From Promethearchaeota archaeon Loki_b31 (GTDB lineage Archaea; Asgardarchaeota; Lokiarchaeia; Sigyniarchaeales; SOKP01), in assembly GCA_005222975.1 (NCBI GenBank), contig NJBI01000016.1, forward strand, positions 1 through 55,734: 55,734 nucleotides of DNA, in the 5' to 3' direction. Below the pieces are notes generated by a model. It searched no databases. It was not told the DNA's origin and saw only the letters and a program-made list of their open reading frames with translations. The position numbers and the translations under genes are program-made. Below are positions 7,208-44,471 of this stretch, one piece after another. The number at the start of each line of letters is the position of its first letter. Positions within the stretch are counted from its first letter, which is position 1.

Positions 7208-8008
7208 TTAATAATAATTTATCTCTATTAAATCATTTTTGATTATTTCTTTAAAAATCTTTACGATCTCTTTTTTTCTCTTTTTATCAATTGCGTATAC
7301 AAAGTATTCTGAAGGTATTCTTGCGATTGAATATAATTGTACAATATCGGGTTTAATTTTTTTTATCGCATAAGCTAATTGCTCAATATTTTCTTTATTA
7401 TCATTGGAAATAAAATCTTCTCTGTAAGAATTATAAATTAAACATTGAATTGCTAATTTCTTATTTTGCATATCTTTTCTCAATTTAACAAGCGATTCAA
7501 CAATAGTGTTAACATCTGGACTATCTTTATGTGGTCTATTGGTGTTTGTAAAGTCGTTTTCAGTAGCGGCGTCTAATTTTGCTAATACAAGATCAAAGTG
7601 TTTTACTCTTTCTCGAACTTCGCTTGAATAAAGAGTACTTGAATTAGTAAAAAGCGTAATAAGAGGAGGTTCGTTGGTCCATTTCAAATCTCTTCTAACA
7701 TCTAAAGTAATAGAGTAAAAATCTAATAAATTTTCGTTGAGCGTAGGCTCACCTTGATATCCTGTAAAGCTTAAACTTTTTAAATGGGGGACATATTTTA
7801 ATATATCTTTAAGTTCTCTTCTAAAGTTAAACGACGGCGGAGCATTAATTCTATATTCTGGAGAAACTAAGTTTTCTTTATTTGTTGCGCCGATCTCACA
7901 ATAGACACAATCATAAGAACAAACTTTATAATTTAACAGTATATTTATTCCCAATGAGAGACCTAAGCGTCTTGACTGGAAAGGTCCATAGGTATATTTT
8001 CTAGGCAT
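7208..8008 (-). CDS. Radical SAM Fe-S protein (YGP.xSRRLGxSLG family); intact copy, probably chimeric
   Basis: CSYDCVYC cluster motif, GEPTL, TNSSTL, KLDA; its first 54 codons have a diverged duplicate at 16764-16918. Confidence 0.88.
   Translation of the reverse strand: MPRKYTYGPFQSRRLGLSLGINILLNYKVCSYDCVYCEIGATNKENLVSPEYRINAPPSFNFRRELKDILKYVPHLKSLSFTGYQGEPTLNENLLDFYSITLDVRRDLKWTNEPPLITLFTNSSTLYSSEVRERVKHFDLVLAKLDAATENDFTNTNRPHKDSPDVNTIVESLVKLRKDMQNKKLAIQCLIYNSYREDFISNDNKENIEQLAYAIKKIKPDIVQLYSIARIPSEYFVYAIDKKRKKEIVKIFKEIIKNDLIEINYY
7848..7869. repeat. Left junction direct repeat of island 1
   Basis: ATTCTATATTCTGGAGAAACTA matches 16764-16785 at 21/22 nt, with the first 14 nt identical. Confidence 0.8.
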
Positions 8009-8117
8009 GGGATACGGATTTGCGAAATACTATTAATTAGATCAAACTATTTATCATAATCTATTTATCCTAAAAAATTTTGCTTGTAGGCAATATGAAT
8101 TTAGCTTTTTATATAAC

Positions 8118-9503
8118 TCATCCATTTTCCGCCAAATACTGTTTTTTAAAATCGTTATATGTTTCAATCTCGAAGTGATCATCAAAAAATTGTCGAATTT
8201 ATGAGGAATTCATTCCGAAAAAGAGTCTTTGACTAACTCTAGTATGATTATGAGCTGTGGACTTGCTCCAACCATACTTATGATAAATTGAGCTAAAAGA
8301 TTCATAACATTTAATTTCTTTAATTATAAGTGGTATAACTAATTCTTTTCTAGCTTCTTCCCATGTCGAAAAACCTAATTGATTATATATTTGTCTTTGT
8401 AAGGCATATCGGTAATAAGGTTTTTTATATTCATGTAAATATTTCTCAATTCTTAAATCATTAAGGGCTACGTTTTGTTTTAGGTACTTAATAATTAATT
8501 TTTTTAGAAGACTTGCTGGAATACTTAATTTTGTTACTCCTTCCCAACCATCAAGTTTTCCTATAACTGGTAAATTAAGAATGTTTTCTGTATCAACAAG
8601 ATATTTCAATTTTTGATATGATTTACCACCAAACAATGTTTCAATATATTTTCGAGTGAAACGATTAAAAACATTATTTATTTCATGAAGTTCAAAATGA
8701 TTTTTTAATAACAGATAAAAGACAGGTCTTAAAAATTTTATTTGAGCTTCTTCAAATGATCCCCAAAATTGATTAATTCTCCTTCTAACTGTAGACACAC
8801 TGCATACTATACCATGTTTTTTTAGTTTTCTTTGAATTTCAGTTTCCATATCGCCTAATGCTATATAATAAGCAATTGCTATCATTGGTAGATTCATTTT
8901 ACTCACCCCTCCTCCCCCTCCTGTATTTATATTAAGACCAGAACTTGTCAGATTATGTTCTGAAATGTAATCAATTTCTCCAGATCTTAAAGAATTTGAG
9001 GAAAAATGGATTTCTACAGGTGTTCTTGTAAATCTTGAATTTAATATACCAAAAATTAATCTCCAATTATAATTTTCATTGACTTTAAGATTCTCAAAAC
9101 CAACTTGATTTAATATGTTATAAATTAATCTATGGAGTTTCCCTCCTTCACCATGTTTAAAAACAGCTTTATAAACATAAGACATCCATCGAGAATTCAT
9201 CGTATCTGTTGTAAATCCCGCAATGGTTTCACCCTTAGATTTGTCAGATTTTATTTCAGTTATCTCATATACTAAACCATACCATAGATATTTCCCTCTT
9301 GAATTAACAATTCTTTCAAATTTGGAAATATCTTCAAAATCAGATCTTTTAAAACTAAACTCTCCGCTCAAGCGTAGTTGCTTAGGTTTAAATCCTAATT
9401 CCTTGAATGCCCTTAAAATCTCCTTTTTATAGCTCTCAGAAGTGATTTTTGCATATTTTCTAAGAAATTGTTTTCCAAATTTTAATTTCTGCGTTAGGCA
9501 CAT
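8118..9503 (-). CDS. Putative GIY-YIG-like endonuclease with C-terminal HTH/helical repeats (in-frame TAA at 8199-8201)
   Basis: GLVYEI...TIAGFTT...RW..Y, E..YI, GLNINTGGGG; HTH-like CSVSTVRRRI; repeats such as WGSFEEAQIKFLRP and WEEARKELVIP; the frame continues 26 codons past the TAA. Confidence 0.6.
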
Positions 9504-9873
9504 TCATATCTTCTTTTTGTTCATTAGAATCTTCTTTTTCTGATCGTTCTTTGGGTTTATATTTGTCAAATTCTTCGATAATAAACTTTTGGATTTCTTT
9601 CAATAAGTTGGGATAAAAAAGGTTTAATTGTCTTAAAGTTTTTAACGATTTGAATAATCCACCACTTGAAGTTAATATTTTATGCGTGTTATCTTTGTCA
9701 ATTTCAGTTATTGGCAGATTATCTAAAAGAATTTTAGCTATATTCTTTTTATAGTCAAAATTAATTTCAAATCTATCAAAATCCTTTTCTAGTTCCTTTC
9801 CTATTTGATTAGGTATTTCTTTAATATCATTTTTTACCATTATACTTCCCCCGATTTGAACTTGGGTTATCAT
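9460..9873 (-). CDS. Hypothetical protein; possibly the N-terminal part of the GIY-YIG-like protein via a +1 frameshift
   Basis: 44-nt overlap with the downstream ORF in the +1 frame. Confidence 0.55.
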   Translation of the reverse strand: MITQVQIGGSIMVKNDIKEIPNQIGKELEKDFDRFEINFDYKKNIAKILLDNLPITEIDKDNTHKILTSSGGLFKSLKTLRQLNLFYPNLLKEIQKFIIEEFDKYKPKERSEKEDSNEQKEDMNVPNAEIKIWKTIS

Positions 9874-10012
9874 ATTTAATTCCTTTCGATTTAAAGTAAA
9901 AATCGATACATTTTCTTATATATGTCGCAATCGTTTCATTTGTATTGCATAAATCTTTAATCTTGTTAATCAGACTTAGCGATATTCTTACTCGGATCGT
10001 CACTTTTTCCAA
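9827..10012 (-). CDS. Ribbon-helix-helix (CopG-like) protein
   Basis: Alternating beta strand (VTIRVRIS) followed by two helices (TIATYIRKCI). Confidence 0.6.
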   Translation of the reverse strand: MEKVTIRVRISLSLINKIKDLCNTNETIATYIRKCIDFYFKSKGIKYDNPSSNRGKYNGKK

Positions 10013-10142
10013 TTGTAATTCCCTCTTTTTCTAATTTTTCTTTAACTAGCTTGTGAATCCATTTAGAAATATTTAGACAGTGCTCCTCTGTGTATTTCCT
10101 TAGAGCTTCATCAATCTTTTCTTTTAAGTGTATTGCTGTCAT
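9966..10142 (-). CDS. Ribbon-helix-helix protein (58 aa, not in ORF track)
   Basis: Translated by hand: MTAIHLKEKIDEALRKYTEEHCLNISKWIHKLVKEKLEKEG... Confidence 0.6.
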   Translation of the reverse strand: MTAIHLKEKIDEALRKYTEEHCLNISKWIHKLVKEKLEKEGITIGKSDDPSKNIAKSD

Positions 10143-10640
10143 AATTTTAACCTTTTTGTTTATAGGAATAAAAATAATTTTTTTATCCTTACTATACTAT
10201 AGCAAGATTTTTGGATTTGGGTATATTTGTACTTTTTAAAACTTTTTTATCTCCAATAATATTACTAGGAGAATTATTATTTAAATCTTTACAATTCTAT
10301 CAATTTGACGATTAGAAAAGTATTTAATTATTAATCTGCTCGATGTTTTACAGGTTTTTGATGCAGGAAATTGTCGATAGGGAAATATGTGATAGATGCG
10401 TACTTTTGCATACTTTGTTTACAAAAAAATATATTTGTATATATTTCTCAATTGGGAAATAGGGAAATTTTAACAATTTAGTCAAAAACATGTCAAAAAG
10501 TCTAAAATTCGATTGCAAAAGAGTGGAATTAGTTAATCTTCTTCCTTTTTTATCGCGTTTTAAACGATTTTATCAAATCCCACTAAAAACCCATTATGAG
10601 TAGAGTTATAACTGAATTATATGTTATTATATACTTGGCT

Positions 10641-10663
10641 AACGTGTAAATTTTAATCACGTT
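10641..10663. promoter_or_regulatory. Palindromic operator candidate
   Basis: AACGTG-N11-CACGTT; its left part recurs as TAACGTGTCAAATTTTAA at 13228-13245. Confidence 0.4.
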
Positions 10664-10730
10664 CTATAAATTTAAATTAAAAACATATAAATAATAAAAA
10701 GAAAAAAATAAAAATCGAAATGAGGGAAAA

Positions 10731-11954
10731 ATGTATAATAAAAAATTAAGAATCTCAGTAATAATAATAATAAGTTTATTATTAGTAGGCACAAATATTG
10801 TTTCTATTGCAAACGCGGCCGTTCCAACTACATCTTCTTCTGACGTTTTATTTGTACAACTAGGGGATGATTCTATAATTGAAGAAACTACTCAAATAAT
10901 AATGGATAATCTAAATGACAGAAACGAACATTTGTTACAAGAACTTGAAAAACAGGAGATGGAAGAATATGTTGAAAAATTATACGGAATGATTGGTACA
11001 ACTTCTGATATTAATTTTGGTCAACTAAATATTATTGGTCCCCGTATTCTCGATATCAATGTGATTCAAATATCCGTTGAAAGCCTTGAAAATGGAATTC
11101 TGGAGAGTTATAAGACTCAAGTACTGATAATAATAGGGCATGGAAGTGAAGAAGGTCTCATAGGTGAAAATGATAAAATACTTTGGGACGATATTAAGAA
11201 AATAATTACAGATAATTCTGCGAAATATTCGATAATTGCATCCTGTTATAGTGAAAGAGCAACAAAAGATCTTCCGAATGCTATTGGTTTTCCGAATATC
11301 ATAGATGGAATTGTTGCAGCTAACATTGTTTCAGCAATACTTTTTAAAATGTTGGAAGAGACAACTTTAATGAAAAATTGTCTTAATAATGCACTTAAGC
11401 GCTATATGTATATCAGTATTAATCCTAAATCTGCTCAAATTTTGGAACTTGACCCTGGAGGTCCAGGTGGTGGTGGTGGTTCTCCTCCTCCTCCTTCAGG
11501 TCAGTACTTTAGTGATATGGAGATTGAATATTACATTATTGCATTTATAATTTTAATTTTTGCATCGACGATAAATGCAGTGATACCTGCAGACGCTTCT
11601 TGGGCAATAAAACTCTTTAGCGCTTTTAGTGTCATTGGAGTAGGGAGCTATATTTTTAATTTCGCTCTTTACGCAGCTGGTCTGATGACAGAGGCAGCCA
11701 TGTTGTCTAGTTTAGTGGGCTTTTTCAATGTGATGTTAGCGGCACTAATTAATCTTTTTTACATAGTAGATCCGTTTGAGCTAAGTTGTATGATCATTGT
11801 ATTTGGGGTGGGAGCACTTTTGACGATAATTGAACTTCTTGCATCAGGAGGTACTCTTGTAGTTGCAAAATTTTGTCTTATGGCAATAGCATTTGTTTCA
11901 TTAGGATTAGCTTGTTATTTTGATTGGTTGGATTCTGATGGCATTGTAGGTTAA
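10731..11954 (+). CDS. Secreted protein: signal peptide, clan CD-like (GHG...SC) protease domain, Gly/Pro linker and hydrophobic C-terminal domain
   Basis: MYNKKLRISVIIIISLLLVG...ANA signal; VLIIIGHG (His137) and IIASCYS (Cys172); PGGPGGGGGSPPPPSG linker; ~150-aa Ala/Gly/Leu-rich helical tail. Confidence 0.7.
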   Translation: MYNKKLRISVIIIISLLLVGTNIVSIANAAVPTTSSSDVLFVQLGDDSIIEETTQIIMDNLNDRNEHLLQELEKQEMEEYVEKLYGMIGTTSDINFGQLNIIGPRILDINVIQISVESLENGILESYKTQVLIIIGHGSEEGLIGENDKILWDDIKKIITDNSAKYSIIASCYSERATKDLPNAIGFPNIIDGIVAANIVSAILFKMLEETTLMKNCLNNALKRYMYISINPKSAQILELDPGGPGGGGGSPPPPSGQYFSDMEIEYYIIAFIILIFASTINAVIPADASWAIKLFSAFSVIGVGSYIFNFALYAAGLMTEAAMLSSLVGFFNVMLAALINLFYIVDPFELSCMIIVFGVGALLTIIELLASGGTLVVAKFCLMAIAFVSLGLACYFDWLDSDGIVG

Positions 11955-12033
11955 AATAATACTCTAACTATTTTTTTTTTCTAAAGTTTTATTACGAATT
12001 AATCTTAAAATAATCATAAAGGAGAGGATAATT

Positions 12034-13143
12034 ATAAACAATAATTCTAAAAAAACTCAAGATTACTATATTGAGATAAAAAATAACATTAGTGTCTCGA
12101 AAAATGGTATAGTCGGAAAGATTTTTGTTGGAATTATGTTTACATTTTTTCTAACCATTTTTTCAGTCACGGCATATTCAAATATCTTTTTTGCCGTTCC
12201 AACTTATGCTAAAATGTTAACTATACTTGGAACCGGATTTTTATTTGTAAATATTGTATTCGATAAAGCAGAAGCTATCTTATATTGGAAAGATCCGGGA
12301 AAAAGACCCGTGATTTTGAATATAAAGATGAAACAATCGTTCATTGAGACCATAGTTGTATTTTTTGTTAATTTTATTATTATTATACTTTCCCAATTTT
12401 TAGGATTATTAAATTTTATATATGAACGTGAAGGGATGAAATATTTTATTTCTTATTATCAACCACCCCTCTTTGAAACAGTATTAATTGCCATAATTAC
12501 AACTCTATCGTTTTTCGTCATATGGACATCTATGTATTGGTGTGTAAGTAGATTCCTTCAAATTAAAAATTATTCACACGATTTCAAAAAATTTGATATA
12601 AAAAGATTAGGTATTTTTTTTGGTGGAATGATTTTATTAATAATTTTTTGGGTTGTTCTTTATATACCGGATATGTTATATAAAGAGGTTAAAGTGAATG
12701 GGGACTTCAGTGGTATATTATTTTTTAAAGAATTTGCTCAAAAAGATTATCTTAGGATATTGACGGCGGAGATATTTATTCTTATTGGCTTAAATCTATT
12801 ATTCTATTTTCTAGGTGATAAAAATTTGAGCGAAAGAGATGATTTTGTTCTATTGGAGAAGGAAAACAGTGAGATTAAAAGTAAAAAAGAAAAATACCAA
12901 AAAAGAGCGATCGAAAAACGTTTTATAATAGCAATGTTTGAAATTATAATAGTAACGCTAATTTTTATGCCTTTATTTTTTATATTCGCGTTATTCTATT
13001 CAACAATTGGATCTATTTTAATTTCCGTTCCCTATTTTCTTATGTTAGGAACTATAATTGTCGTATTTATTTTATATGGCGCTATACTGACTGGGAGGAT
13101 TTCGATAATTAAATCAAAATCGAGACAAAGTATCGAAAGTTAA
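12034..13143 (+). CDS. Multi-pass membrane protein (candidate immunity/partner protein)
   Basis: About 8-9 hydrophobic segments. The frame is open from 11968, and AAGGAGAGG at ~12019 precedes ATA/ATT codons; the first ATG is at 12136. Confidence 0.7.
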   Translation: MNNNSKKTQDYYIEIKNNISVSKNGIVGKIFVGIMFTFFLTIFSVTAYSNIFFAVPTYAKMLTILGTGFLFVNIVFDKAEAILYWKDPGKRPVILNIKMKQSFIETIVVFFVNFIIIILSQFLGLLNFIYEREGMKYFISYYQPPLFETVLIAIITTLSFFVIWTSMYWCVSRFLQIKNYSHDFKKFDIKRLGIFFGGMILLIIFWVVLYIPDMLYKEVKVNGDFSGILFFKEFAQKDYLRILTAEIFILIGLNLLFYFLGDKNLSERDDFVLLEKENSEIKSKKEKYQKRAIEKRFIIAMFEIIIVTLIFMPLFFIFALFYSTIGSILISVPYFLMLGTIIVVFILYGAILTGRISIIKSKSRQSIES

Positions 13144-13266
13144 ATGCAATAAATCAAAGAATTTTAGAAGTAATCTTTTTTTTCTAACTCTATAAATCAT
13201 TAAATCGTTAAAACCAACAAGTACATATAACGTGTCAAATTTTAAACAATTCAAAAACTTTAAACA

Positions 13267-13338
13267 TGGGGGAGGATTAAAACGATACGTTCAGGAATGA
13301 TTGCCATCTGATGTATGTGTCAACCTAATCCTTTCCCA
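13267..13338 (+). other. 72-nt hairpin 1 followed by a T-tract
   Basis: TGGGGGAGGATTA/TAATCCTTTCCCA outer stem (two G-U pairs); inner ATACG/TGTAT and TCAG/CTGA; then CCTTTTTTAAATT. Confidence 0.65.
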
Positions 13339-13410
13339 CCTTTTTTAAATTACAAATATTCGAACGTTTAAAAGAAAAAATTAAAGATTTTGATAAGGAG
13401 ATTTAAGAAA

Positions 13411-13717
13411 ATGTTAGAATGTATCTTATGTGGGAAAATAATCGTTCAAAACGATAATCCTAAGCATTATAGCGTTTGTTCTAAGTGCGACGTAAACGAT
13501 TTAACCGAAGAACAAAAGAAATTCATAGAAATGGGAATAAATTACATAAAGTTAGGAAAAATCGTTAAAACAAAAAGCAATTCGCGATCTTTGCAATTTA
13601 CTCGACGATCTATATTTTTACGCTAAGGAATTAATCCCAAAGAATATGAAACATAACTTGAGTTTTAGAAAAGAAAAATTGAAAGAAGAAATCGAAACAA
13701 AAATAAATGAATTGTAA
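13411..13717 (+). pseudogene. Small Zn-finger protein with a +1 frameshift near 13570
   Basis: CILC...CSKC; the shifted frame reads AIRDLCNLLDDLYFYAKE...RKEKLKEEIETKINEL*, matching the C-terminus of 14145-14297. Confidence 0.55.
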
Positions 13718-13756
13718 GAAATTAATCGAAATTACAAATAAGGAGTGATTAAGAAA

Positions 13757-14029
13757 ATGAAAATAAATTTTTACAAGTACATGTTAATGACGATGGCTTT
13801 TCTCTTAGGTTTCCACTTGTATTACGTTGTTCAATACGAAGCCATATTTTTAAGATACATAAGTGAAAATCGTGATGAGCTCGTATATATAACGCTAATG
13901 AGACTAGAAATGAGTTTCCAACACATAATAACTTTTATGTTCTGTGTGGCATTACTCGTTATAGCTATCGTCTTGTACCTTGCAGAGTTTTACGCTTGTA
14001 AGTACATTAAAAGCAAGAGGGCAGTTTAA
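13757..14029 (+). CDS. Small two-TM membrane protein
   Basis: Two hydrophobic segments; AAGGAGTGA RBS upstream. Confidence 0.6.
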   Translation: MKINFYKYMLMTMAFLLGFHLYYVVQYEAIFLRYISENRDELVYITLMRLEMSFQHIITFMFCVALLVIAIVLYLAEFYACKYIKSKRAV

Positions 14030-14037
14030 ACTAATAT

Positions 14038-14109
14038 GGGGATTTTGAGAAGGGATAGGGTTTGATTCTCTCAGCCCCCAACATGGTTATCTACTTCTTA
14101 AAAATCCCC
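14038..14109 (+). other. 72-nt hairpin 2 followed by a T-tract
   Basis: GGGGATTTTGAGAAG/CTTCTTAAAAATCCCC outer stem; then TCTTTTTTAAATT. Confidence 0.65.
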
Positions 14110-14144
14110 TCTTTTTTAAATTAAAAAAATGAGCGTGATAAAAA

Positions 14145-14297
14145 ATGAAAAAACTAAAGTTTGATAAAAAAGGGTTTCTAATACTTCAAAAATTAAATTA
14201 TGAAATACAACACAACGATAGAACCAAAGATTTAATTGATAATATTAAAAAAGAAAAACTGAAAGGGGAAATCGAAACTAAAATAATGAAATTGTAA
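14145..14297 (+). CDS. 50-aa protein ending KEKLKGEIETKIMKL (not in ORF track)
   Basis: Translated by hand; shares its C-terminal motif with 13411-13717 and 14675-14809. Confidence 0.55.
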   Translation: MKKLKFDKKGFLILQKLNYEIQHNDRTKDLIDNIKKEKLKGEIETKIMKL

Positions 14298-14313
14298 ACA
14301 ACAAATAAAGGAC

Positions 14314-14508
14314 ATGATAAAAGAAATGAAATACTGCATAAATTGTAAGCTAATAGTACAACCTAAAAAGGATTTTAATTTATGTGCTTTTCTTTTTCTT
14401 GCTTTGTTGGGTAGTTTTTGGATATATATAATATATTATGTTTTGAAGTCTAAGAAATGTCCTATATGTAATAGCACTAATTGGGGGGGCAATTATTTAA
14501 ATCTCTAA
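14314..14508 (+). CDS. LITAF-like zinc-ribbon membrane protein
   Basis: CINC-hydrophobic hairpin-CPIC; likely start ATG 14326. Confidence 0.6.
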   Translation: MIKEMKYCINCKLIVQPKKDFNLCAFLFLALLGSFWIYIIYYVLKSKKCPICNSTNWGGNYLNL

Positions 14509-14549
14509 TCAGTTCGATTAGAAAGAATAACGCTAACCCTTTTATTCTC

Positions 14550-14620
14550 GGAGATGCGAGCACTCATTTATGTCTTTTGAAACTTTTACCCTCTCTAACC
14601 CTTTCATTTCTCGCATCTCC
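14550..14620 (+). other. 71-nt hairpin 3 followed by a T-tract
   Basis: Perfect 11-bp stem GGAGATGCGAG/CTCGCATCTCC; then ACACTTTTT. Confidence 0.65.
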
Positions 14621-14674
14621 ACACTTTTTATTTTTACGTTCATTTTAATTAATCTAATGTTAGATGTGTAAAAA

Positions 14675-14809
14675 ATGCCATATAATTGGAAAATAGAATC
14701 TCAAGAACTAAGAAAAGAAAAAAATCGTTTGTTAGATAAGTTAAAAGAGTTAAAACGATCTTATGAGAAATTTAAAAAGGAATTCGAAACAATATTAAAT
14801 AAAAAGTGA
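14675..14809 (+). CDS. 44-aa coiled-coil peptide (not in ORF track)
   Basis: MPYNWKIESQELRKEKNRLLDKLKELKRSYEKFKKEFETILNKK. Confidence 0.5.
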   Translation: MPYNWKIESQELRKEKNRLLDKLKELKRSYEKFKKEFETILNKK

Positions 14810-14952
14810 AAAACGTTCAAATTTGCTAAAATGGATTCTATGGGTATTTTATTGATAAAATTATAAATTGTCGGTAAAAATACGGCAGTTTAATTATAAT
14901 AAATATTTCACAAAGTATTTAAAGAAAAAATGAAAAATTTCTTTACTAGAAT

Positions 14953-15579
14953 TTAAAGAAACAAGGGAAGGCAAGTTGTAAATCCCGCTATTAATCCCGT
15001 TACGATGCCAGTAATTAGATAGATTATTGATTTTTTTGTATTCATTCCTTACTTATTAATTATCTGCCATAGACTTATTGTAATCGTCAAGAGAGCTAGA
15101 AACGAGAAAATACCCATTCCATAGTATGTAGTTTTCTCGTAAGGATACACTGTCTTACTTATATCCGAAATGCTATTCGTAGCAAATGGATCGATTATAC
15201 CTGAAAGAGAGATAAAATTAAAAATGAGTCGATCTGGTAGTGGGTCTAAAACGACAAGCAAGAAGTATGTGAACCAATCGAGCAGAATTCCAAACGCAAA
15301 GACTATGTATGATGACCCCAGAATCATGCGAGGCTTTGTCATAGGATTGTCTCCTAATTTTTGTTCCTTGCTGTATCTTATTCTTTCTAAAAAGTATTTA
15401 CCTCTTAAACTTAATAAGGTTAAAATCCCGATAATTAAGAGTATCGCAAAAAAGATGTATTTAATATACCCAAAAAACAATTCAATAAATGAATTAATCT
15501 CGATAAACAGACCGTCAAGGTTGGGTAAAAATGGGTCAATTATACTTAAAAATTTTACACGAAAAAGATAGGTGATCAT
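14953..15579 (-). CDS. Hypothetical membrane protein with in-frame TAA at 15049-15051
   Basis: The frame continues after the stop with another TM helix (GMNTKKSIIYLITGIVTGLIAGFTTCLPLFL*). Confidence 0.6.
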
Positions 15580-15623
15580 CTATATTACCTTTAAAATCAC
15601 CTATTTAAATTCTACAGATTAAC

Positions 15624-15962
15624 TTATTTTTTCACTGCAAGATCTTTTCTCGAACTTATGTTTTCCTTAGTAATTATGAATTCATATATTCCAGCAGATA
15701 CGCCTAGAAGTAGAACATATATATTGCTTAGAATTATGTTAAATACTGGAACATCAAAAATATCTATAAATAGATACGGAATAGAATCTAGAATAAAAAC
15801 AGTGATACTTGATATCAAAAGAAATCTACTAACTATAACCCATGTTGAGACTTTGCGATTTCTATGACGAAAGATTAAGACAACAATATTTAAAATATAC
15901 AATCCTATTAACCAACCAAGAAAAACTAGATAAAAGAGCTCTGAATCTAAATAACCAATCAT
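15624..15962 (-). CDS. Hypothetical three-TM membrane protein
   Basis: Three hydrophobic helices, 112 aa. Confidence 0.65.
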   Translation of the reverse strand: MIGYLDSELFYLVFLGWLIGLYILNIVVLIFRHRNRKVSTWVIVSRFLLISSITVFILDSIPYLFIDIFDVPVFNIILSNIYVLLLGVSAGIYEFIITKENISSRKDLAVKK

Positions 15963-16099
15963 TATATTATTACTGAGAAAAAGTCATATAAACTCCTAAC
16001 TTTTTAATCTAAGATTTAAAAAAAAAAATTTAAGAGACATATTTATCTAATGTTTCTAAAGTTTTCACAGCTATACTTGATGAGATCTTAGTCATTACA

Positions 16100-16375
16100 A
16101 TGATACCCTTAACTGAAGATCCTGAAAAATGCATAATTTTAGGATTATTCAATAACATAATAGGAAAAGGGGTATATTTTGAAAGCAGTTTGATATGGTT
16201 GGATAAATGTATAGATCAAAAACGCAACGAATTTGATGATTTTACAAGGGAACCAGCTCTAACTTATGGAAATAGTACAGATCAGTACTTTAACACTTAT
16301 TTGATGATTATGTTTAAAATAATCTCTATCCAAAAGATTTCAGTAGATCACCCTGTATTAGGTAAACTAACCTAA
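16100..16375 (+). CDS. Hypothetical ORF or gene fragment
   Basis: Open frame only, no recognised motif. Confidence 0.25.
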   Translation: MIPLTEDPEKCIILGLFNNIIGKGVYFESSLIWLDKCIDQKRNEFDDFTREPALTYGNSTDQYFNTYLMIMFKIISIQKISVDHPVLGKLT

Positions 16376-16521
16376 TTGAGATTAATCATGTTTAATGAGA
16401 TATTAATAAATAAGAATAAAACAAACAAAAATTGTTATTAATCTAATTTTAGTAATAAAGATAAATTAATTTGTATTAAGAAAATTAATCCAAGAATAGA
16501 TAAGAAAAAAGATGAAATTTC

Positions 16522-16763
16522 ATGTCTAAAAAGACGGAAAGTTATGTACATAAAGAAAAAAAGCGTAAAAATAACCCTGAAGTAGGATTATCAGTATATG
16601 ATAAAGAATTCCCAAGAAAATCCAAATATGATATGATCCGTATTTAGATCCTCAATTAATTTGGACAAATAAATCAGAGAAAACTTCATTCGAAGTTCCA
16701 ATTGTATCACTATTAACTCAAGAAAAAATTAATCCAAAACAAATAATTACCAACACGATATAG
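16522..16763 (+). pseudogene. Truncated N-terminus of an adenine DNA methyltransferase (type III Mod-like family)
   Basis: MSKKTESYVHKEKKRKNNPEVGL...[1-nt deletion ~16631][39 protein letters not shown]; ends exactly at the island junction. Confidence 0.7.
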
Positions 16764-16785
16764 ATTCTATATTCTGGGGAAACTA
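16764..16785. repeat. Right junction direct repeat of island 1
   Basis: ATTCTATATTCTGGGGAAACTA. Confidence 0.8.
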
Positions 16786-16918
16786 CTTCTTTAGTAGGGC
16801 CTATTTCACAATATACGCAATTGTAGGTGCATAATTTATTTTTTGGTAGAATATCTATTCCTAACGAGAGCCCTAGCCGTCTTGATCGAAATGGACCATA
16901 AGTGTATTGACGTGGCAT
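16764..16918 (-). pseudogene. Displaced native 5' fragment (52 codons) of the radical SAM gene
   Basis: 41/54 aa identical to the start of 7208-8008; homology stops after VSPEYRI; begins 10 nt after the hydrolase stop, i.e. at an operonic position. Confidence 0.88.
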
Positions 16919-16928: not shown

Positions 16929-17693
16929 TTAATTAAAATAATTAATGATAAAATTCTCTATCGATTTATTGACCTCACTTGGTTTTTCTAACATAACCAT
17001 GTGTCCAGCATCGTTTATTATGTTTAAATCTGAATTCTTAATTTTATCGAGAAAAAATTGCGAAAATTTAACCGGCGTCATCTTATCTTGTTTCCCTACG
17101 ATAATTAGGCATGGAACTTCAATACTATCTGTTTTATCTATGGTATCAAAGTTATCGCAAATTTTAAAATCTTCATATGTGACTTCTGCCGTAATTTTCG
17201 AAGTTTCTTGAACATAATTATCTATTAATTCTCTTGGTGTTTTTCTATAGAATATCCCATCGGGTAAAGAGTCTAAAAACTCTTGGTAATTGGATCTTAA
17301 AGAGTTTAGGATAATTGGGGCAACTCTTAACCTTCCCCCGGTGCCACATAAAATTAAACCTGAGATTTCTTTAGGGTATGTAAAATAATATTGTTGAGTA
17401 ATAGCTCCTCCCAAAGAATGTCCACATAATATTACATTGTCATAGTTTAAAGATTTAATTAGGTGCCGAATTACATCGACATACAAATCGAGATTTAGCT
17501 CCGAAAATTCATTTGAATTGTTATGGGAAGGTAAATCGATAGCGATAAGATCGTAATTAACTTCAAGATCGAATTGATTTTTCCAAGTATTTGAACTTCC
17601 TCCTGAGCCGTGTATAAAAATAATTACATTTTTACTTTCGGTTTCTTTAATCCGATAAAAGATCTTCTTCTCTTTATAACTCAAGAAAGGCAT
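16929..17693 (-). CDS. Alpha/beta hydrolase
   Basis: FIHGSG, GHSLGG nucleophile elbow, GKQD, AGH. Confidence 0.93.
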
Positions 17694-35694: not shown

Positions 35695-35702
35695 ATATTT
35701 AA

Positions 35703-36857: not shown

Positions 36858-36934
36858 TTTCTAATTAGTATGATTTTTGTTCTTATTTTAATTTAATAAA
36901 AAGTTATATTTTTTATAAAAAAGTATTAAATATA

Positions 36935-38120
36935 ATGCAATAATCATTTTGATTTTGATGAATATATCGATCGGTCAAATACCCATTCAGAGAAATGGGA
37001 TGGTGTTAGTCATATCTTCCAAAAACCTAATCTTTTACCATTATGGGTAGCAGATATGGACTTTCTTGCACCACTTCCTATTAGAAAGGCACTTATCAAG
37101 CGGGCAAAGCATGGAATATATGGTTACACATTTTTTCCGACTGAGTATTATACTGCTGTAATTAACTGGTTTAAACGGCGCCACAATTGGGATATAAAGA
37201 AAAATTGGATTACTTATACACCAGGTGTTATTCCTGGAATCAATCTAACAATTCAGTCATTCAGTAAATCTCGTGATAAAATTATTATTCAGAATCCAGC
37301 TTATCCTCCATTTTTTAGTGCAGTGAGAAATAATGATAGAAGACGATTATTAAACCCATTAAGGTTTTCTAATAAATATTATGAGATTGATTTTGAAGAT
37401 TTAGAAGTTAAAACTAAAATGCCGTCCACGAGAATTTTAATTTTGTGTAATCCGCATAATCCTACTGGACGTGTTTGGACAAAAAAAGAATTGATTCATC
37501 TTGGAGAAATCTGTTTACAAAATAATATTTTAGTGCTTTCAGATGAAATTCATTGCGACTTAATCTATCCCAAATATAAGCACATACCATTTGCATCGAT
37601 ATCAGATGAATTTGCCCAAAATTCAATAACATGTACTTCTCCAAGTAAAACATTTAATTTGCCTGGTTTAAAAGTATCCAATATTATAATACCTAACCAA
37701 AAACTCCGTAATATATTTAGGAAATCTTGTCAAAGTATTGGAATCACACAAGCTACTTGTTTTGGATCGATTGCTCTTGAAGTAGCATATAATAACTGTG
37801 AGAATTGGTTAGCTGAGGCGATTTTATACATACAAAAGAATCTAGAGTTTTTAAAAGCATATCTTGAAGAAAGTCTACCGGAGCTCGAGATAATCGAACC
37901 TGAAGGGACCTACTTCGCCTGGATTGATTTTAGAAAATTGGGATTCGATGCTAATCAATTAAGTACAATCATGCTTGAAAAAGCAAAAGTAGCATTGTTT
38001 GAAGGTTATCTATTTTGAAAAGGTGGTAAGGGTTTTAATCGGATAAATCTTGCTTGCCCACGCTCTATTTTAGAAAGGGCTTTAAATCAAATCACAAAAG
38101 CCATAAAGGATAGTTTATAA
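36935..38120 (+). pseudogene. MalY/PatB cystathionine beta-lyase-like PLP enzyme, disrupted as assembled
   Basis: FDFDEYIDRSNTHSEKWD...LWVADMDF, CNPHNPTG, SDEIH, SPSKTFN. ATG 36935 is 1 nt out of frame. An in-frame TGA at 38016 is followed by KGGKGFNRINLACPRS. Confidence 0.8.
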
Positions 38121-38177
38121 GGTTTGAAATATGAAACACATAGAAGGAGAAAAGTTGTACCAAAAATTGTTGGATAA

Positions 38178-38303
38178 CCCTTTCGAACGAGAAAGGGGAT
38201 AGCGTTTCTTTTTTCTACGAGAAAGAAGAAGACCTAAAGGAAGCCTTGCGAAAGGCACACGTTCCCCTAGACGAGTTTAGCGGTTCGCCACCCGAAACAA
38301 ACT
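38178..38303. ncRNA. Cluster of four hairpins between convergent genes
   Basis: CCCTTTC/GAAAGGG, TTCTTTTTTCT/AGAAAGAAGAA, GCCTT-GCGA-AAGGC and AGTTT...AAACT; GC-rich. Confidence 0.4.
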
Positions 38304-38322
38304 AAGTAAAATCTTCTTTTTT

Positions 38323-40596: not shown

Positions 40597-40716
40597 GATT
40601 AAAATTGATTAATTATTTATAGTATTAAAAAAATACAATTTCAAATTTATATAGTAAATGGTAATTTATGTTTTTTTCTATTTTTTTTTATAATTGTCTA
40701 GTAAGAATTAATAAAT

Positions 40717-41517
40717 TTAATAGGAAATTTCTAAGTTTAAGTTCTTTTCTAGAAATGTTATATATTCCTTTGAAATTTTTGAATCTTTAAGAGATAAATT
40801 TAAAGATTTTTTGATAAATAATTTTCTTAATTTTAATATTCTATTTTTATAGATTTGCAACTCTGGATTCTTTAATAACTCTCCAACAATAAGCCGAGTT
40901 TGTTTATCTAATACCTCGTGATACTGATCAATAATTTGAACTTCGTTTCTCCTTGCTGTATCGCTTATTCTCGCCAATTTTAATTTAGTATTAAAAATTT
41001 TAACTAAATTCGTTATTTCTATTTTTAGATTCTCAGTTTTCGATAAATCATAGCTTTTTAGTGTTTTATCCCAATTATAATTATGAAAAGAATCAAATTT
41101 TACATTCACATTAGAAATTACTTGGTTTGGAATCGTACAGCCCCTTTTTTCATTCCATTTAACACATACTTCGAAGGGTGTTGCTATATAAATAAAAAAG
41201 AAGGATTTTTTTAAATTCTCAGCGATTTCTTTTAAATCATGTCTCATGCTTGTATAATAATTTAAATCGTCGCTAATAACAATAAAATTATTCTTTAAAG
41301 CAGATTCTACTCTCTCTAAATTAGTTTTTCTTACAAAATGTTCATTTTTGGAATTAAATTTATTTGGAAAATGAATATTCCTAATTTTGTCAGGGTCTAT
41401 TATTTTAACCTTATACGAAGTTATTTGCTCTATAGTTTCTTTTAGCAAGATTGCAAATGTAGTTTTACCCGAAGCTGGTAATCCAACTAAAACTATTAAA
41501 AAGTTTTGATCAATCAC
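40717..41517 (-). CDS. pstK: O-phosphoseryl-tRNA(Sec) kinase / Kti12-like P-loop kinase
   Basis: VGLPASGKTT, DPDKIR, DDLNYYTSMR, WNEKRG, YNWD. Confidence 0.75.
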   Translation of the reverse strand: MIDQNFLIVLVGLPASGKTTFAILLKETIEQITSYKVKIIDPDKIRNIHFPNKFNSKNEHFVRKTNLERVESALKNNFIVISDDLNYYTSMRHDLKEIAENLKKSFFFIYIATPFEVCVKWNEKRGCTIPNQVISNVNVKFDSFHNYNWDKTLKSYDLSKTENLKIEITNLVKIFNTKLKLARISDTARRNEVQIIDQYHEVLDKQTRLIVGELLKNPELQIYKNRILKLRKLFIKKSLNLSLKDSKISKEYITFLEKNLNLEISY

Positions 41518-41583
41518 TTACTTCTTCAGCTTCATAAAAGGTTTTTATTAATTTTTTTTTTTGTTTCCTAGAAAAAGTTTTAA
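41510..41583 (-). pseudogene. Displaced native 3' end of the small GIY-YIG gene
   Basis: Reads KTFSRKQKKKLIKTFYEAEEVSD*, homologous to KRYSRKEKVQLIGTFSEEEP* of 44169-44471; its stop overlaps the pstK start. Confidence 0.72.
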
Positions 41584-41752
41584 ATCTTACATTTTTCTGC
41601 TTACTTTCCTAAGAAAAAAATGTTATTCCTTATATAAATATTTACATGTTTATGCCATTCAGTTATACTAAAATTAGTACTCTTTAATCCATATTTAGAT
41701 AATGTTTATCAGTAATTTAAAAAAATAATATAATTATTCTTTAATTATCGAT

Positions 41753-43312
41753 TTAATCCAAAAAATCGTTGACTTCATGAAATCCGAGGTAATTGGTTGC
41801 AAAGAAAATTTTAGCATCTTCAAAAATATTAAAATTCCATTTTCGTTTAAAATAACGAGCAGTAAATCCTTTACGACCAAGCATTAGATCAATTTTAGTA
41901 TGTGGTGTATTTCTTCTTATTAAGTTTTCAATAATAGGTTCCAAAAAGATGTCTCTCATTGCGTCCCACGACTTACCCGTACCTGTATCCCATAATCGGT
42001 TCTTAAGCATCCTGAATAACGAATCTTTGTCGTATAAGGCTCCTTCTGCTCTTGGGTTAGCAATACTCATTGCTTCGAACACTTCAATAGCTTCATACAT
42101 CTGAAAACCACTTTGCAAGAGAGAAATAACTATTGGTTTAATGAAAAATCTTTCGTAAGCTATTGAAGGATCCATTTTTAGATAATCATTTGTCCACTGG
42201 TAAATAGCACTCAAGGAATAAGATTTTTCAGAGATAGTCCCACTTATAAATTGTTCATGAGCTTTTTTAATATCTTTGAAAGCGGTGGCCTTATAATCTT
42301 CATCAAATTTTACAAATTTTTTAGCAATTTCGTGAGCCATCAACCCTTGACTATAATACTCTATAAGTTTTTTAGTCCGTAAGTAAGTAGAGACTTCTTT
42401 ATATCCCACATTACTTCCAAATTGATCGGAATACCATGTTTTTAGCCTATTAAGAATAGTTGACGTCGTAACACCGTATCTCACAGCAATATCGAGCATT
42501 TCATACCCCCTCTCGATTAAGTGATTTACATCATCAAAAAAGATTCCTTTAATATATCCAGAATGCTCATCACCTTTTAAAGAAGTCAAATCCCCGACAT
42601 GTTTATTATAATCCAAATTAATAGATAAATCAAAACCATATTTTGACTTTGCATCTCTATTGAAAGAAATAGTAAAGAAATCTTCGCTTATAATTGCGTT
42701 TTTTCGCCCTATTTGAACATCGAGAATTATCATTTTAAAACTTTCAATACCTTGTAATTTTATATCTTCATATAAAGGAAAACCTTCATATTTTTTCAAT
42801 TTTGAATCTTTCTGATATAATTTAGCTCTTATTTGCGGAAGGTTTTTAGTCATTCCTATTCTTATACCATCTTCAGGTCTCTCCTTATTAACGAATGCGT
42901 ATATAATATATGGTATTTCTTCAACTTTAGTAGCTTTTTTCGAAAGATCTCTATACTTATGAAGAAGTTTATCTTGAGTATTAGGATATTTTCTTGCGTT
43001 ATTGATGTTTAAACTTTTTACGCCTACGGAATTACTAAGATCTAAAGATTTGAATTTTTCAGAATAAACATTGTTGAAATGCTGCTTATAAAACTCAAAG
43101 AACTCAAAATACGACAACTTATCAATTATTCTTTTATTAAAAAAAACACTTAGATTATTGTAAGTGAGATTTTTATATTTCTGAGAGAAATTTGCAAAGA
43201 AACGGCAAAGAAGTTGATTAACGCGCGTTTTATTTGAGAAATTGTCAGAGTTTTTATCATTAAAATAACGTGTGATAGCCCTTATCTTCGTGAATAACGA
43301 AGATATTTTCAT
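41753..43312 (-). CDS. Putative GIY-YIG-like endonuclease with HTH/helical repeats
   Basis: IIYAFVN...IRIGMT...RAKLY, LYEDI...GIESF, SE, DYN; HTH DIAVRYGVTTSTILNRL; repeats FFIKPIV and WDAMRDIFLEPII. Confidence 0.65.
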   Translation of the reverse strand: MKISSLFTKIRAITRYFNDKNSDNFSNKTRVNQLLCRFFANFSQKYKNLTYNNLSVFFNKRIIDKLSYFEFFEFYKQHFNNVYSEKFKSLDLSNSVGVKSLNINNARKYPNTQDKLLHKYRDLSKKATKVEEIPYIIYAFVNKERPEDGIRIGMTKNLPQIRAKLYQKDSKLKKYEGFPLYEDIKLQGIESFKMIILDVQIGRKNAIISEDFFTISFNRDAKSKYGFDLSINLDYNKHVGDLTSLKGDEHSGYIKGIFFDDVNHLIERGYEMLDIAVRYGVTTSTILNRLKTWYSDQFGSNVGYKEVSTYLRTKKLIEYYSQGLMAHEIAKKFVKFDEDYKATAFKDIKKAHEQFISGTISEKSYSLSAIYQWTNDYLKMDPSIAYERFFIKPIVISLLQSGFQMYEAIEVFEAMSIANPRAEGALYDKDSLFRMLKNRLWDTGTGKSWDAMRDIFLEPIIENLIRRNTPHTKIDLMLGRKGFTARYFKRKWNFNIFEDAKIFFATNYLGFHEVNDFLD

Positions 43313-43829
43313 GAATACTTAGTATAATCGCAGATAAAACTTCTGCTTGAATTTCCATTCGAAGTGGATTATAAATTTTTTTAAATACGGGTTCTACAGG
43401 TTTTAATTCTGTAAGTGTTCGTATAATGGTAAATGTCAACATTGACAACATATCTTTTGTATCATGTAAAGTTATAGGAGTATTATAATAATCATAATCA
43501 ACAATTTTTTCTTCAAATTTAGTGAAAGTATCGTAATTCTTTAGCCTTCCTATTAAATTTACTATATTATCAGCAAAATACCTAATAAATACATCAATCA
43601 TTTTCACTTCTGTCTGTAGAGGATCTCCGTTAGGTATTAAAACCTTTTTTTGGATATAAGATTTTTCGTGATAAAATTCATAAAAAAACATAATTACTAA
43701 ATCATATATTTTTTCTTGCGGACAAAATTGTTCCAATCGATAAAATTCTCCATCATGTCTATTGATCATAGAAACCTTTAAAATCTTGTTAGCTTTTTCG
43801 GCAATTTCAGAATTAAGATAGATTTTCAA
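43260..43829 (-). CDS. Hypothetical protein; possibly the N-terminal part of the downstream ORF via a +1 frameshift
   Basis: 53-nt overlap; ends TTA TTT TAA, with the downstream ORF in the +1 frame. Confidence 0.6.
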   Translation of the reverse strand: MKIYLNSEIAEKANKILKVSMINRHDGEFYRLEQFCPQEKIYDLVIMFFYEFYHEKSYIQKKVLIPNGDPLQTEVKMIDVFIRYFADNIVNLIGRLKNYDTFTKFEEKIVDYDYYNTPITLHDTKDMLSMLTFTIIRTLTELKPVEPVFKKIYNPLRMEIQAEVLSAIILSIHENIFVIHEDKGYHTLF

Positions 43830-44168
43830 TTATTTTGACACCTTATTTGAATTATTCCTATAAATATTAAATTATCAAAATCATATTTATAATCCTTTTT
43901 TATCGGGTAAGACACATCCACAATACTCACAAATTTTTTGTCCAGCTTCATTTAATTTCATATCACACTCATTCTTTTGGTCGTATATTTATTCTAATAG
44001 AGCTGTTAAAAGCACAGGTAGAATAAACATTAAAACGAATATTAAGATACTAGTTTATTACAAATGATTAGTTACTTTTTTAATCTACAGTATTCTACAA
44101 ATCTATAGGGTTCATTAACACTTCCATGTTTTTGGTTCATTTTATCGTCGTTCACCCTTAGACTCCTT

Positions 44169-44471
44169 TTAAGGCTCCTCTTCACTGAAAGTTCCTATAA
44201 GCTGAACTTTCTCTTTCCTTGAATATCTCTTAATTTCTAACTCCCTCTTCAAAGCATCACTTTTTTCGTAAAATGTTTCGAAATATTTTAATTGAATTTT
44301 CTTTTTCCCTCGACAAAATTTAGCCCCAGTTCCCTTTTTATGTTCTTGTAATCTTCTGTTAAGATTATTAGTATATCCCGTATAGAATCTTTTTTTGTTA
44401 TTTTTCGCAATTGTTTCTAATATATAAACATAATAAAGAGACATGTCAGCTTCACTATTTATAAAATGCAT
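44169..44471 (-). CDS. Small GIY-YIG nuclease (UPF0213/YhbQ-like), chimeric C-terminus
   Basis: YYVYIL...FYTGYTNNLNRRLQEH..G.GAKF...ALKRELEIK. Confidence 0.9.
   Translation of the reverse strand: MHFINSEADMSLYYVYILETIAKNNKKRFYTGYTNNLNRRLQEHKKGTGAKFCRGKKKIQLKYFETFYEKSDALKRELEIKRYSRKEKVQLIGTFSEEEP

Follow-up and report, generated by a model that had tools for sequence, protein, structure and literature searches.

Two islands in a Lokiarchaeial contig probably represent free-standing homing-endonuclease elements of an "end-replacing" type. Each interrupts a conserved gene whose site is uninterrupted in close relatives, leaves that gene as a mosaic of resident and foreign sequence, and carries a large nuclease-like protein. 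The island-1 protein has the fold and the catalytic residues of a GIY-YIG enzyme, subfamilies of the nuclease are paired with particular host genes, and the junctions vary between copies. The window, meaning the whole 55,734-nt stretch of DNA analyzed, is contig NJBI01000016.1 of Promethearchaeota archaeon Loki_b31 (GCA_005222975.1), and its island junctions lie at about 7847, 16763, 41584, and 44233. The Loki_b31 genome carries three elements, in a radical-SAM gene, a small GIY-YIG gene, and mvhD, and all three copies have a native stub on one side and a foreign end on the other. All three insertion sites are empty in the closest relatives, with G246 filled at the radical-SAM site only. The earlier note had read both islands as insertions into split genes, and this reading was borne out, since close relatives have an intact gene at each position, and the stubs match its native ends.

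Two split genes and their empty sites

Island 1 interrupts the radical-SAM gene (7208-8008(-)), whose first 54 codons are duplicated at 16763-16918(-) with 72% amino acid and 73% nucleotide identity. The distant copy was recognized by its match to the relatives' gene start as the stranded native 5' end, which runs for 52 codons and then passes through the junction into island DNA. As described in the earlier note, it keeps its operonic position, beginning 10 nt past the alpha/beta hydrolase gene (16929-17693(-), Pfam Abhydrolase_1/6) that is the native upstream neighbor. The hydrolase gene, the radical-SAM gene, and a ROK kinase gene are contiguous in about 25 relatives with a gap of 10-14 nt, and these constitute the empty sites. 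The amino acid sequence of the stub is that of the radical-SAM gene start of G241, G251, and G240, and together with its 30 upstream nt the stub shows few or no differences from the native start in these genomes.

The 5' end now carried by the gene (7847-8008(-)) is shared with the G246 allele, which adjoins a nuclease gene. Sliding identity over nt 1-150 of the radical-SAM gene reached 98-100% against the element allele of G246, compared with 64-71% against native alleles of the closest relatives. The foreign sequence switches to native at about nt 150-165, and for most of its length the resident remainder (7208-7846(-)) shares 91-100% nucleotide identity with G241 and further relatives whose site is empty. 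The active gene thus carries a diverged end as had been claimed; the further proposal that this end was recoded did not hold, and it is instead a foreign natural allele. Despite replacement ends that are 98-100% identical, the foreign tract in G246 runs about 50 nt further than in the window. A 14-nt identical block, CCAGAATATAGAAT, marks the inner edge of the duplication, and the native and replacement sequences near the junction differ, for example by a 6-nt indel 15 nt upstream.

Next to the replacement end lies the family-1 nuclease gene (8199-9503(-), 434 aa), which encodes a GIY-YIG domain at about residues 75-194 followed by AraC/MarA-like HTH repeats. Nuclease gene and replacement end also adjoin in the independent assemblies G246, G231, L005, L155, and L156. 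The stretch between the nuclease gene and the stub (9504-16762, no strand assigned) is the island-1 "cargo" and contains two small RHH-like ORFs, one of 137 aa, membrane proteins of 407 and 335 aa, and small zinc-ribbon ORFs. Pfam, PHROG, and PADLOC searches of this cargo returned no recombinase- or defense-type family, and it holds short segments repeated on 8 other contigs. It is absent from the sister elements of G246, L005, L038, and L155, and the DNA common to the sister elements ends at the 5' end of the family-1 nuclease gene. These 7 kb may not be mobilized together with the nuclease. In L155, the same nuclease (94% nucleotide identity) and hydrolase (95%) occur, but with other neighboring DNA and no stub.

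Island 2 interrupts the small GIY-YIG gene near its 3' end. The whole gene spans 44169-44471(-) with a diverged tail. Its resident 5' part (44234-44471(-)) was assigned by a Pfam GIY-YIG match (3.9e-15) and by DNA alignment with G241, G246, G251, and G240. The replacement 3' end (44169-44233(-)) encodes a tail finishing in RYSRKEKVQLIGTFSEEEP before the stop, versus a native tail finishing in TFSRKQKIELIKTFDEAEEVSD in relatives. The native 3' end, identified from the relatives' 3' ends, is stranded at 41515-41584(-), where it matches that of G241, G246, G251, and G240 bar 3 substitutions. It overlaps the start codon of the native downstream neighbor, a pstK/KTI12-like kinase gene (40717-41517(-); Pfam KTI12 1.4e-33; synteny in 38 of 41 genus relatives), as the earlier note had observed, and this overlap matches the arrangement at the empty sites of 29 genus relatives. 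About 50 nt of the small GIY-YIG gene upstream of the junction (about 44234-44290) are unlike all four close relatives, and on sequence this divergent stretch may be a co-conversion tract. Between the two ends lie the family-2 nuclease gene (41753-43312(-), 519 aa), encoding a divergent GIY-YIG-like module at about residues 135-240 and then HTH repeats, and a 189-aa ORF (43260-43829(-)) that overlaps the start of the nuclease gene by 53 nt. This ORF had no family match in Pfam, PHROGs, or PADLOC and no convincing alignment with the N-terminal extensions of homologues.

A GIY-YIG superfamily with HTH arrays

The large proteins of the two islands belong to a small superfamily, with 92 cluster representatives among 1.84 billion. 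BLASTP found no similarity between the proteins encoded at 8199-9503(-) and 41753-43312(-); profile comparison identified families 1 and 2 as homologous (95% probability, E 2.6e-8, 302 columns), in agreement with the relationship proposed earlier. In the 48-member alignment A7, R105, E176, and N191 are invariant, and Y79 and G96 are at least 90% conserved. The AF2 model of the family-1 protein (pLDDT 93, pTM 0.88) contains the beta-beta-alpha-alpha-beta-alpha core fold of GIY-YIG enzymes, built from strands 76-84, 90-98, and 158-166 and helices 102-115, 122-134, and 169-182. Its best structural match was the I-TevI catalytic domain (1ln0_A, Z 9.3, rmsd 2.2 Å, 90 of 92 residues), followed by T4 EndoII (Z 6.1) and UvrC (Z 4.9), and Foldseek gave a TM of 0.73 against 1mk0, normalized by target. 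The expected fold with catalytic Arg, Glu, and Asn was thus recovered for the island-1 protein, whereas the description of its module as degenerate has to be withdrawn, as all catalytic residues are kept; the family-2 module is indeed divergent.

In Pfam, PF01541 matched 8 of 48 superfamily members (best E 1.7e-7), and the family-1 protein of the window matched neither PF01541 nor PF10544, the clan member accepted beside it in this check. The family-2 protein gave a weak T5orf172 match that fails the cutoff (E 0.0032). Family 2 keeps equivalents of Y, R-x-x-x-Y, and E, with an ambiguous Asn equivalent. Its AF2 model, built from 5 sequences, is confident for the HTH part only, with pLDDT below 50 over residues 127-255, and the order of secondary structure fits; its GIY-YIG assignment is made because of the profile homology to the family-1 superfamily. 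The C-terminal part of the family-1 model resembles an AraC/MarA double HTH (Z 6-7). The HTH array carries a recurring W-x-x-A-x-x-x-F/L-x-P motif, and the proteins are 430-800 aa long. These alignments and models suggest a new, compact superfamily that probably comprises long-site, sequence-specific GIY-YIG enzymes with modular HTH arrays.

Related elements at other loci

The third Loki_b31 element, on contig C90, has the same build. It lies in mvhD, with the native stub 33 nt after hdrA, its region includes a HEPN-like gene, and the hdrA-mvhD site is empty in G241, G246, G240, and G250. The mosaic of resident and foreign sequence seen in the radical-SAM gene recurs in mvhD and in the small GIY-YIG gene. 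Mosaic tracts could also arise by later homologous recombination within populations.

Two further elements occur in other genomes, one in the gene for ribosomal protein S8 and one in a second radical-SAM gene. In G229, the smallest element consists of the nuclease gene and the replacement end only, and its native stub keeps the ancestral setting at L050 10945-11145. In G168, the stub (L046 13431-13568) is native in sequence but is found upstream of L14 rather than in its native setting. Five ribosomal protein genes separate it from the replacement copy, an arrangement that calls for an additional deletion. In the S8 replacement allele of G168, a hairpin of 29 nt is inserted 9 nt away from the junction; it is absent from all eight genus relatives.

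The presence of elements is patchy, with 30 of 400 phylum genomes positive (28 of them within one family) and 9 of 41 genomes in the genus. Pairing between subfamily and host gene is fixed across genomes and genera, at 9 loci for the radical-SAM gene and 2 for a PorA/KorA-like gene, and two more such pairs were found. Near-identical copies differ in their far junction, their cargo, and how far the foreign tract extends; the window, G246, L155, and L007 are unlike one another in far junction and neighboring DNA, in whether a stub is present, and in where the foreign tract ends.

Flanking by duplicated gene ends, anticipated for Asgard homologues in general, recurs in other genomes without being universal. 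By tblastn, a stub is present at about 3 of 10 loci with enough flank. The near-identical element in L155 has none, and at many loci the large gene sits directly upstream of a specific gene without a stub. The counts suggest that stub duplication is an occasional outcome or is soon lost, and some nuclease copies may have a resident, non-mobile role. Scanning the whole genome gave about 50 orphan gene ends located near the gene they derive from, so gene-end duplication alone is not rare, and such fragments are fairly common in places with no nuclease nearby. Judged by sequence comparison, chance is excluded for the stubs by their position and their identity to native alleles, not by the duplication alone.

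Probable homing, its alternatives, and its precedents

An integrative element that inserts site-specifically, with a circular form and an attP containing a partial copy of the host gene recombining at a short core, would also give the order of stub, island, and replacement end, which is the product expected of integrases that target gene ends. The 14-nt identical block noted above for island 1 would fit an att core, and the large gene adjoins the junction in all cases. The recombinase would then either have escaped recognition, in which case it might be the large protein, or be an integrase that is supplied in trans or no longer present. We regard this as improbable. In line with the earlier note, no tyrosine or serine recombinase or DDE transposase family was found among Pfam, PHROGs, and PADLOC for the ORFs of any island, and the GIY-YIG protein is the sole product of the minimal element. 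The HTH region of family 1 matches Xer/integrase catalytic domains weakly (Z 3.3-4.0), under its AraC-type matches, and no relatives were found on IMG/VR viral contigs. The termini are inconstant, near-identical nucleases having other far junctions, other neighbors, or no stub, and foreign tracts of variable length reach beyond the duplication. This variation in far junction, cargo, and foreign tract fits double-strand-break repair, as in homing, and not site-specific integration.

The stubless loci and the orphan gene ends fit a view of the large proteins as resident host proteins, either HTH regulators or repair or defense nucleases tied to their neighbors, with the duplicated ends as by-products of unrelated recombination or gene transfer. 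This account seems hardly probable, as very close relatives differ in presence or absence at all three sites and a native stub and a foreign end flank every copy in the genome. The replacement end moves with the nuclease gene at 98-100% nucleotide identity between genomes whose remaining gene differs, and the targets (a radical-SAM enzyme, a small GIY-YIG protein, mvhD, and ribosomal protein S8) share no common function. Stitching of two strains' alleles during assembly would be favored by the nature of the genome, a MAG of 99 contigs with about 6% contamination, and by the many superfamily gene copies near contig ends. Such an artifact is highly improbable given that nuclease and replacement end adjoin in the five independent assemblies named above, that stub-bearing architectures also occur in G229, in G168, and on contig C90 of Loki_b31, and that stub and replacement end share one contig each time with unique sequence between them.

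Under end-replacing homing, the minimal element would be a sequence-specific GIY-YIG nuclease gene with a long HTH array plus a foreign copy of the end of its target gene. Cleavage, allele specificity, and the repair route are what we infer from the observed architecture. In a cell where DNA carrying the element encounters DNA lacking it, the nuclease would cleave the native allele at the junction or close to it, and repair from the element-bearing copy would bring in the nuclease gene and the foreign gene end. The foreign end would keep the host gene whole while differing at the target site. The recipient's own end would be displaced as a non-expressed stub, usable as a homology arm in later rounds. 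Good homology on the far side would permit clean repair with no stub, as in L155, L007, and L054; poor homology would give an irregular far junction and might trap cargo or neighboring donor genes. Two-sided repair with the stub as a homology arm, as in the WHO model of yeast, would fit the data at least as well as the one-sided or microhomology repair originally proposed.

A wider reading, which we consider unlikely, is that Lokiarchaeial GIY-YIG/HTH homing constitutes a general, integrase-free route of gene flow that drags long donor tracts and includes an immunity device in S8. It would require DNA sharing between cells of different species. The dragged tracts may include the 7 kb of island 1, the HEPN-like gene on C90, and possibly the five ribosomal protein genes in G168, and the 29-nt hairpin in G168 S8 might be a micro-intron that is spliced out and at the same time disrupts the nuclease target site.

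I-TevI is intron-encoded, and the free-standing Seg GIY-YIG genes of T-even phages sit between genes, with flanking markers co-converted. The Asgard proteins share with them the closest structural match (the I-TevI catalytic domain) and the order of an N-terminal GIY-YIG domain and a C-terminal HTH-containing DNA-binding region. They differ in that this region is a much longer AraC-like HTH array and that the window copies have no Pfam GIY-YIG match. To our knowledge, Seg enzymes bring no duplicated gene end and leave no stub. The end-replacing principle itself is already known from fungi. In the WHO elements of Torulaspora and Lachancea yeasts, the FBA1 3' end is replaced and leftover fragments act as homology arms (Coughlan et al. 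2020, PMC7282813). There too, a free-standing endonuclease gene adjoins its target, homing swaps one gene end for a resistant foreign end, the old end stays behind as a non-expressed homology arm, and the target gene becomes a mosaic with discordant histories. Island 2 has exactly this order of gene with new 3' end, nuclease gene, and old 3' fragment. WHO proteins, however, are intein-like LAGLIDADG/zinc-finger proteins of the eukaryotic nucleus in meiotic diploids, whereas the Asgard enzyme is a predicted GIY-YIG nuclease with HTH repeats, known from sequence in an archaeal chromosome. The Asgard elements also replace 5' ends, in mirror-image order, and their subfamilies target several unrelated genes. 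Fungal mitochondrial mORFs form gene hybrids at Allomyces macrogynus atp6 and at Glomus atp6, atp9, cox2, and nad3 (PMC3630166). In these, an endonuclease ORF, which is of GIY-YIG type at Glomus atp9, sits in the gene together with a foreign, diverged C-terminal segment, and the native C-terminus is stranded downstream, near-identical to that of close relatives. Unlike the archaeal chromosomal proteins of 430-800 aa with multiple HTH modules, which replace 5' ends too, mORFs belong to organelle genomes, encode small LAGLIDADG or compact GIY-YIG endonucleases, and replace 3' ends only. Our literature search found no description of end-replacing homing in archaea.

By these findings, homing that swaps gene ends, described in fungal nuclei and mitochondria, would also operate in archaeal chromosomes. 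Such homing requires that DNA with and DNA without the element share a cell. Replacement ends that are near-identical (98-100% in nucleotides) have spread between genomes whose flanking genes differ by 5-10%, which indirectly points to frequent DNA exchange and gene conversion among Asgard archaea, the archaea most closely related to eukaryotes. The ends of conserved, even essential genes are rewritten, including those of ribosomal protein S8, mvhD, and radical-SAM enzymes, and the resulting mosaics can mislead phylogenies and annotation. Pairs of native target and putatively resistant allele can be read straight from genomes and would help studies of nuclease specificity.

Two insertions with native gene ends left in place

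The earlier note had proposed that two islands split conserved genes and strand the native end in its original position. Empty sites in relatives and the identity of the stranded ends (stubs) to native alleles bore this out. On the minus strand, the island-1 locus opens with an alpha/beta hydrolase gene (16929-17693), and a 66-codon ORF containing the stub (16718-16918) starts 10 nt after it. About 7 kb of ORFs without any family follow, then the 434-aa ORF of the family-1 large protein (8199-9503), the radical-SAM gene (7208-8008) and a ROK kinase gene. Codons 1-54 of the radical-SAM gene are duplicated in codons 1-52 of the 66-codon ORF at 72% amino acid and 73% nucleotide identity, and the similarity stops at an identical 14-nt block, CCAGAATATAGAAT. 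Of the 135 genomes of the taxonomic family, 120 have a single copy of the radical-SAM gene. About 25 relatives show the empty site: there the hydrolase gene is followed after 10-14 nt by the radical-SAM gene, and the ROK gene comes next. The stub and the preceding 30 nt match the gene start of three close relatives (G241, G251 and G240) exactly or almost exactly. The start of the active gene belongs to another allele, which has a 2-codon insertion. In a sliding comparison, its first ~150 nt showed 98-100% identity to the allele of a fourth close relative, G246, versus 64-71% to the native one, and the gene was 91-100% native-like from about nt 155 onward. G246 likewise has the large gene.

Island 2, also on the minus strand, runs from a small canonical GIY-YIG gene of 100 aa (44169-44471) through a 189-aa ORF to the 519-aa ORF of the family-2 large protein (41753-43312). 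About 170 nt past the latter comes a short reading frame, which terminates on the pstK (40717-41517) start codon. The end of the small GIY-YIG gene overlaps the pstK start in all 29 genus relatives examined, and positions 41515-41584 match the native end of this gene in G241 except for 3 substitutions. The tail of the active gene differs from the native end, and the ~50 nt preceding the junction are also unlike all four close relatives. The junction reads ...GAAATTAA/AAC...; in the radical-SAM gene, its island-1 counterpart falls near codon 52. These alignments identify both islands as insertions and the stubs as native gene ends.

The ~7 kb between stub and nuclease gene of island 1 are absent from sister elements, and parts are repeated on other contigs. 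Instead of cargo that the element carries along, as the earlier note suggested, this DNA may have been trapped or inserted later. Segments 13250-13547 and 14889-15626 have copies at 71-97% nucleotide identity on at least seven other contigs (C81, C88, C89, C19, C13, C65 and C14), possibly representing another small repeated or mobile sequence family. Contig C75 carries a paralogue of the island-1 gene for a 335-aa membrane protein (11790-13202). A 407-aa ORF (10731-11954, plus strand) had no Pfam match; its product combines a signal or membrane anchor with a Gly/Pro-rich linker and, at the C-terminus, membrane helices, and its stretch ...IIIGHGSEEGL...IIASCYS... is reminiscent of the His/Cys dyad of caspase-like peptidases.

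Fold and relationship of the large proteins

Neither large protein matched a significant family in Pfam, PHROG or PADLOC, family 2 gave a weak match to T5orf172 below the cut-off, and profile searches of PDB sequences returned nothing for either. Metagenome homologues of each amounted to a handful (470-780 aa), no relatives were found among IMG/VR viral contigs, and the family-1 profile retrieved only 92 cluster representatives, and not family 2, among 1.84 billion proteins. A 48-sequence alignment from this search showed R105, E176 and N191 to be invariant and Y79 and G96 nearly so; Pfam GIY-YIG matched 8 of the 48 members. With this alignment, AlphaFold2 gave a family-1 model of pLDDT 93 and pTM 0.88. 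Residues 75-194 best matched the I-TevI catalytic domain (Z 9.3, rmsd 2.2 Å, 90 of 92 residues), followed by T4 EndoII and UvrC, and residues 272-434 resembled AraC/MarA double HTH domains. Xer/integrase catalytic-domain matches of the HTH region (Z 3.3-4.0) were dismissed as noise beside the AraC-type matches (Z 6-7). The proposed GIY-YIG fold was therefore upheld for family 1, whereas the family-2 model, built from 5 sequences, was too poor in its nuclease part for a structure search.

BLASTP of one large protein against the other found nothing, and hhalign with shallow alignments gave 17% probability. The relation emerged only with the 48-sequence superfamily profile, whose alignment to family 2 spans 302 columns (95% probability, E 2.6e-8); the two proteins are thus homologous, as their motifs had led the earlier note to propose. 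The upstream ORFs of 137 and 189 aa showed no alignment to the extensions that homologues carry at their N-termini. P0092 was rejected as the family-2 protein, being a different protein of the same length.

Further elements and their distribution

A third member in the same genome (552 aa, contig C90, locus L004 5423-9526) lies between hdrA and mvhD, which are adjacent in G241, G246, G240 and G250. Directly after hdrA, 33 nt from the start of native mvhD (MPKAKRKVIKQ) are still present; a 421-aa ORF, an 89-aa ORF and the nuclease gene come next, and then mvhD itself, whose start is unlike the native one. All three copies in this genome thus share one build. Its 421-aa passenger ORF has a weak Csx1/HEPN-type match (PADLOC, E 3.4e-4) and an R-x4-H motif. 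Empty loci, anticipated in relatives, were found at the radical-SAM, pstK and hdrA-mvhD sites. In genome G229, a 487-aa member is all that separates a 66-codon stub from an intact radical-SAM-type gene, which makes this locus, at about 2 kb, a minimal element.

Genome G168 carries a 585-aa member flanked by two ribosomal protein S8 starts, the upstream copy native-type and the gene-linked copy diverged. Its locus (L046, contig C188, 8800-13570) holds single copies of L14, L24, S4e, L5 and S14 and the nuclease gene between the two starts. The native-type stub lies upstream of L14 with only ~35 nt of native context before it. No simple homing event accounts for this arrangement; speculatively, a long tract could have come in from a donor and the resident copies could then have been lost. 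An AU-rich hairpin of 29 nt, AATAAATTCTGATTTATTCAAGGTATATT, is inserted in the sole S8 gene, the one rebuilt by the element (L046 8745-8835, minus strand). It separates ...HAYI from GEFERY and lies 9 nt downstream of where the duplication ends. All 8 genus relatives have S8 without it. The insert may be a micro-intron, and it may also break the nuclease target site. An intron in S8 of the window's genome, considered from a gap in a tblastn match, was discarded: that gene is uninterrupted, and the insert is specific to G168.

Across genomes, each nuclease subfamily stays with a single neighbour gene: the radical-SAM gene at 9 loci in 3 genera, a PorA/KorA-like gene at 2 loci, and two further pairs. 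Distribution is patchy, with members in 30 of 400 phylum genomes, 28 of them in one family, and in 9 of 41 genomes of the genus. Two loci, L062 (G248) and L064 (G235), have an element-type radical-SAM start and a 500-700 nt gap after the hydrolase but no large nuclease gene, and may be remnants of elements that lost it. On an ENA contig (L087, 1553-4407), the gene for a 677-aa family-2 homologue begins inside that for a 274-aa DEAD/ResIII helicase fragment, 4 nt ahead of the helicase stop, which suggests another host gene interrupted by family 2; the contig is too short to include the other side.

The expectation that homologues are flanked by duplicated gene ends held for G168, G229 and the three copies here, but most loci had no stub: tblastn upstream of 16 further loci was positive only for G168 and G229. 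A genome-wide scan found ~50 orphan gene-end fragments, which are fairly common without any nuclease. Duplication is therefore neither necessary nor sufficient. Ten gap ORFs beside such fragments were ordinary genes by Pfam, not nucleases, so other nuclease families with the same trick were not detected here at this sensitivity. The case rests on the combination of a nuclease, a foreign end, a native stub in place and empty relatives.

Homing, integration and known precedents

Products of site-specific integration would be expected to have fixed crossover points and termini, set by a recombinase. The predicted absence of a recombinase or integrase was borne out, and the minimal element of G229 holds the nuclease gene alone. 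There is also no constant far end: the window shares DNA with its sister elements G246, L005, L038 and L155 only as far as 9488, where the nuclease gene has its 5' end. L155, a metagenomic contig ordered hydrolase, 168-aa ORF, nuclease and rebuilt radical-SAM gene, shares 95% (hydrolase) and 94% (nuclease gene) nucleotide identity with the window, yet has no stub; G145 (L007) and G182 (L054) are similarly arranged. The foreign-tract endpoint differs between the window and G246 despite near-identical replacement ends, and the island-2 foreign tract reaches past the duplicated part. Such variable co-conversion tracts and variable resolution point to double-strand-break repair. We consequently prefer spread by homing, a reading supported in its main line by these comparisons, in which the nuclease would cleave the DNA and would do so with allele specificity. 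In L155, ATATAGAATTAAT at ~715-740, about 40 nt after the hydrolase stop, matches the active-gene junction of the window (GAATATAGAAT/TAAT), and could be a junction relic or a chance match in AT-rich DNA.

Yeast WHO elements provide a worked-out precedent for end replacement with a leftover fragment. The WHO endonuclease cleaves an FBA1 allele that is sensitive to it. With the chromosome that bears the element as repair template, FBA1 acquires a new 3' end and the WHO gene is installed; the old end persists as a fragment, which is used as a homology arm later on (PMC7282813). The same layout is seen in mORFs of fungal mitochondria, one of which, at atp9, is of GIY-YIG type (PMC3630166). No description of such elements was found in the searchable Asgard mobile-element literature. 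The observation of the earlier note was confirmed and its interpretation supported in the main line: the strategy is a known one, here with a new protein family and in a host domain that is new for it.
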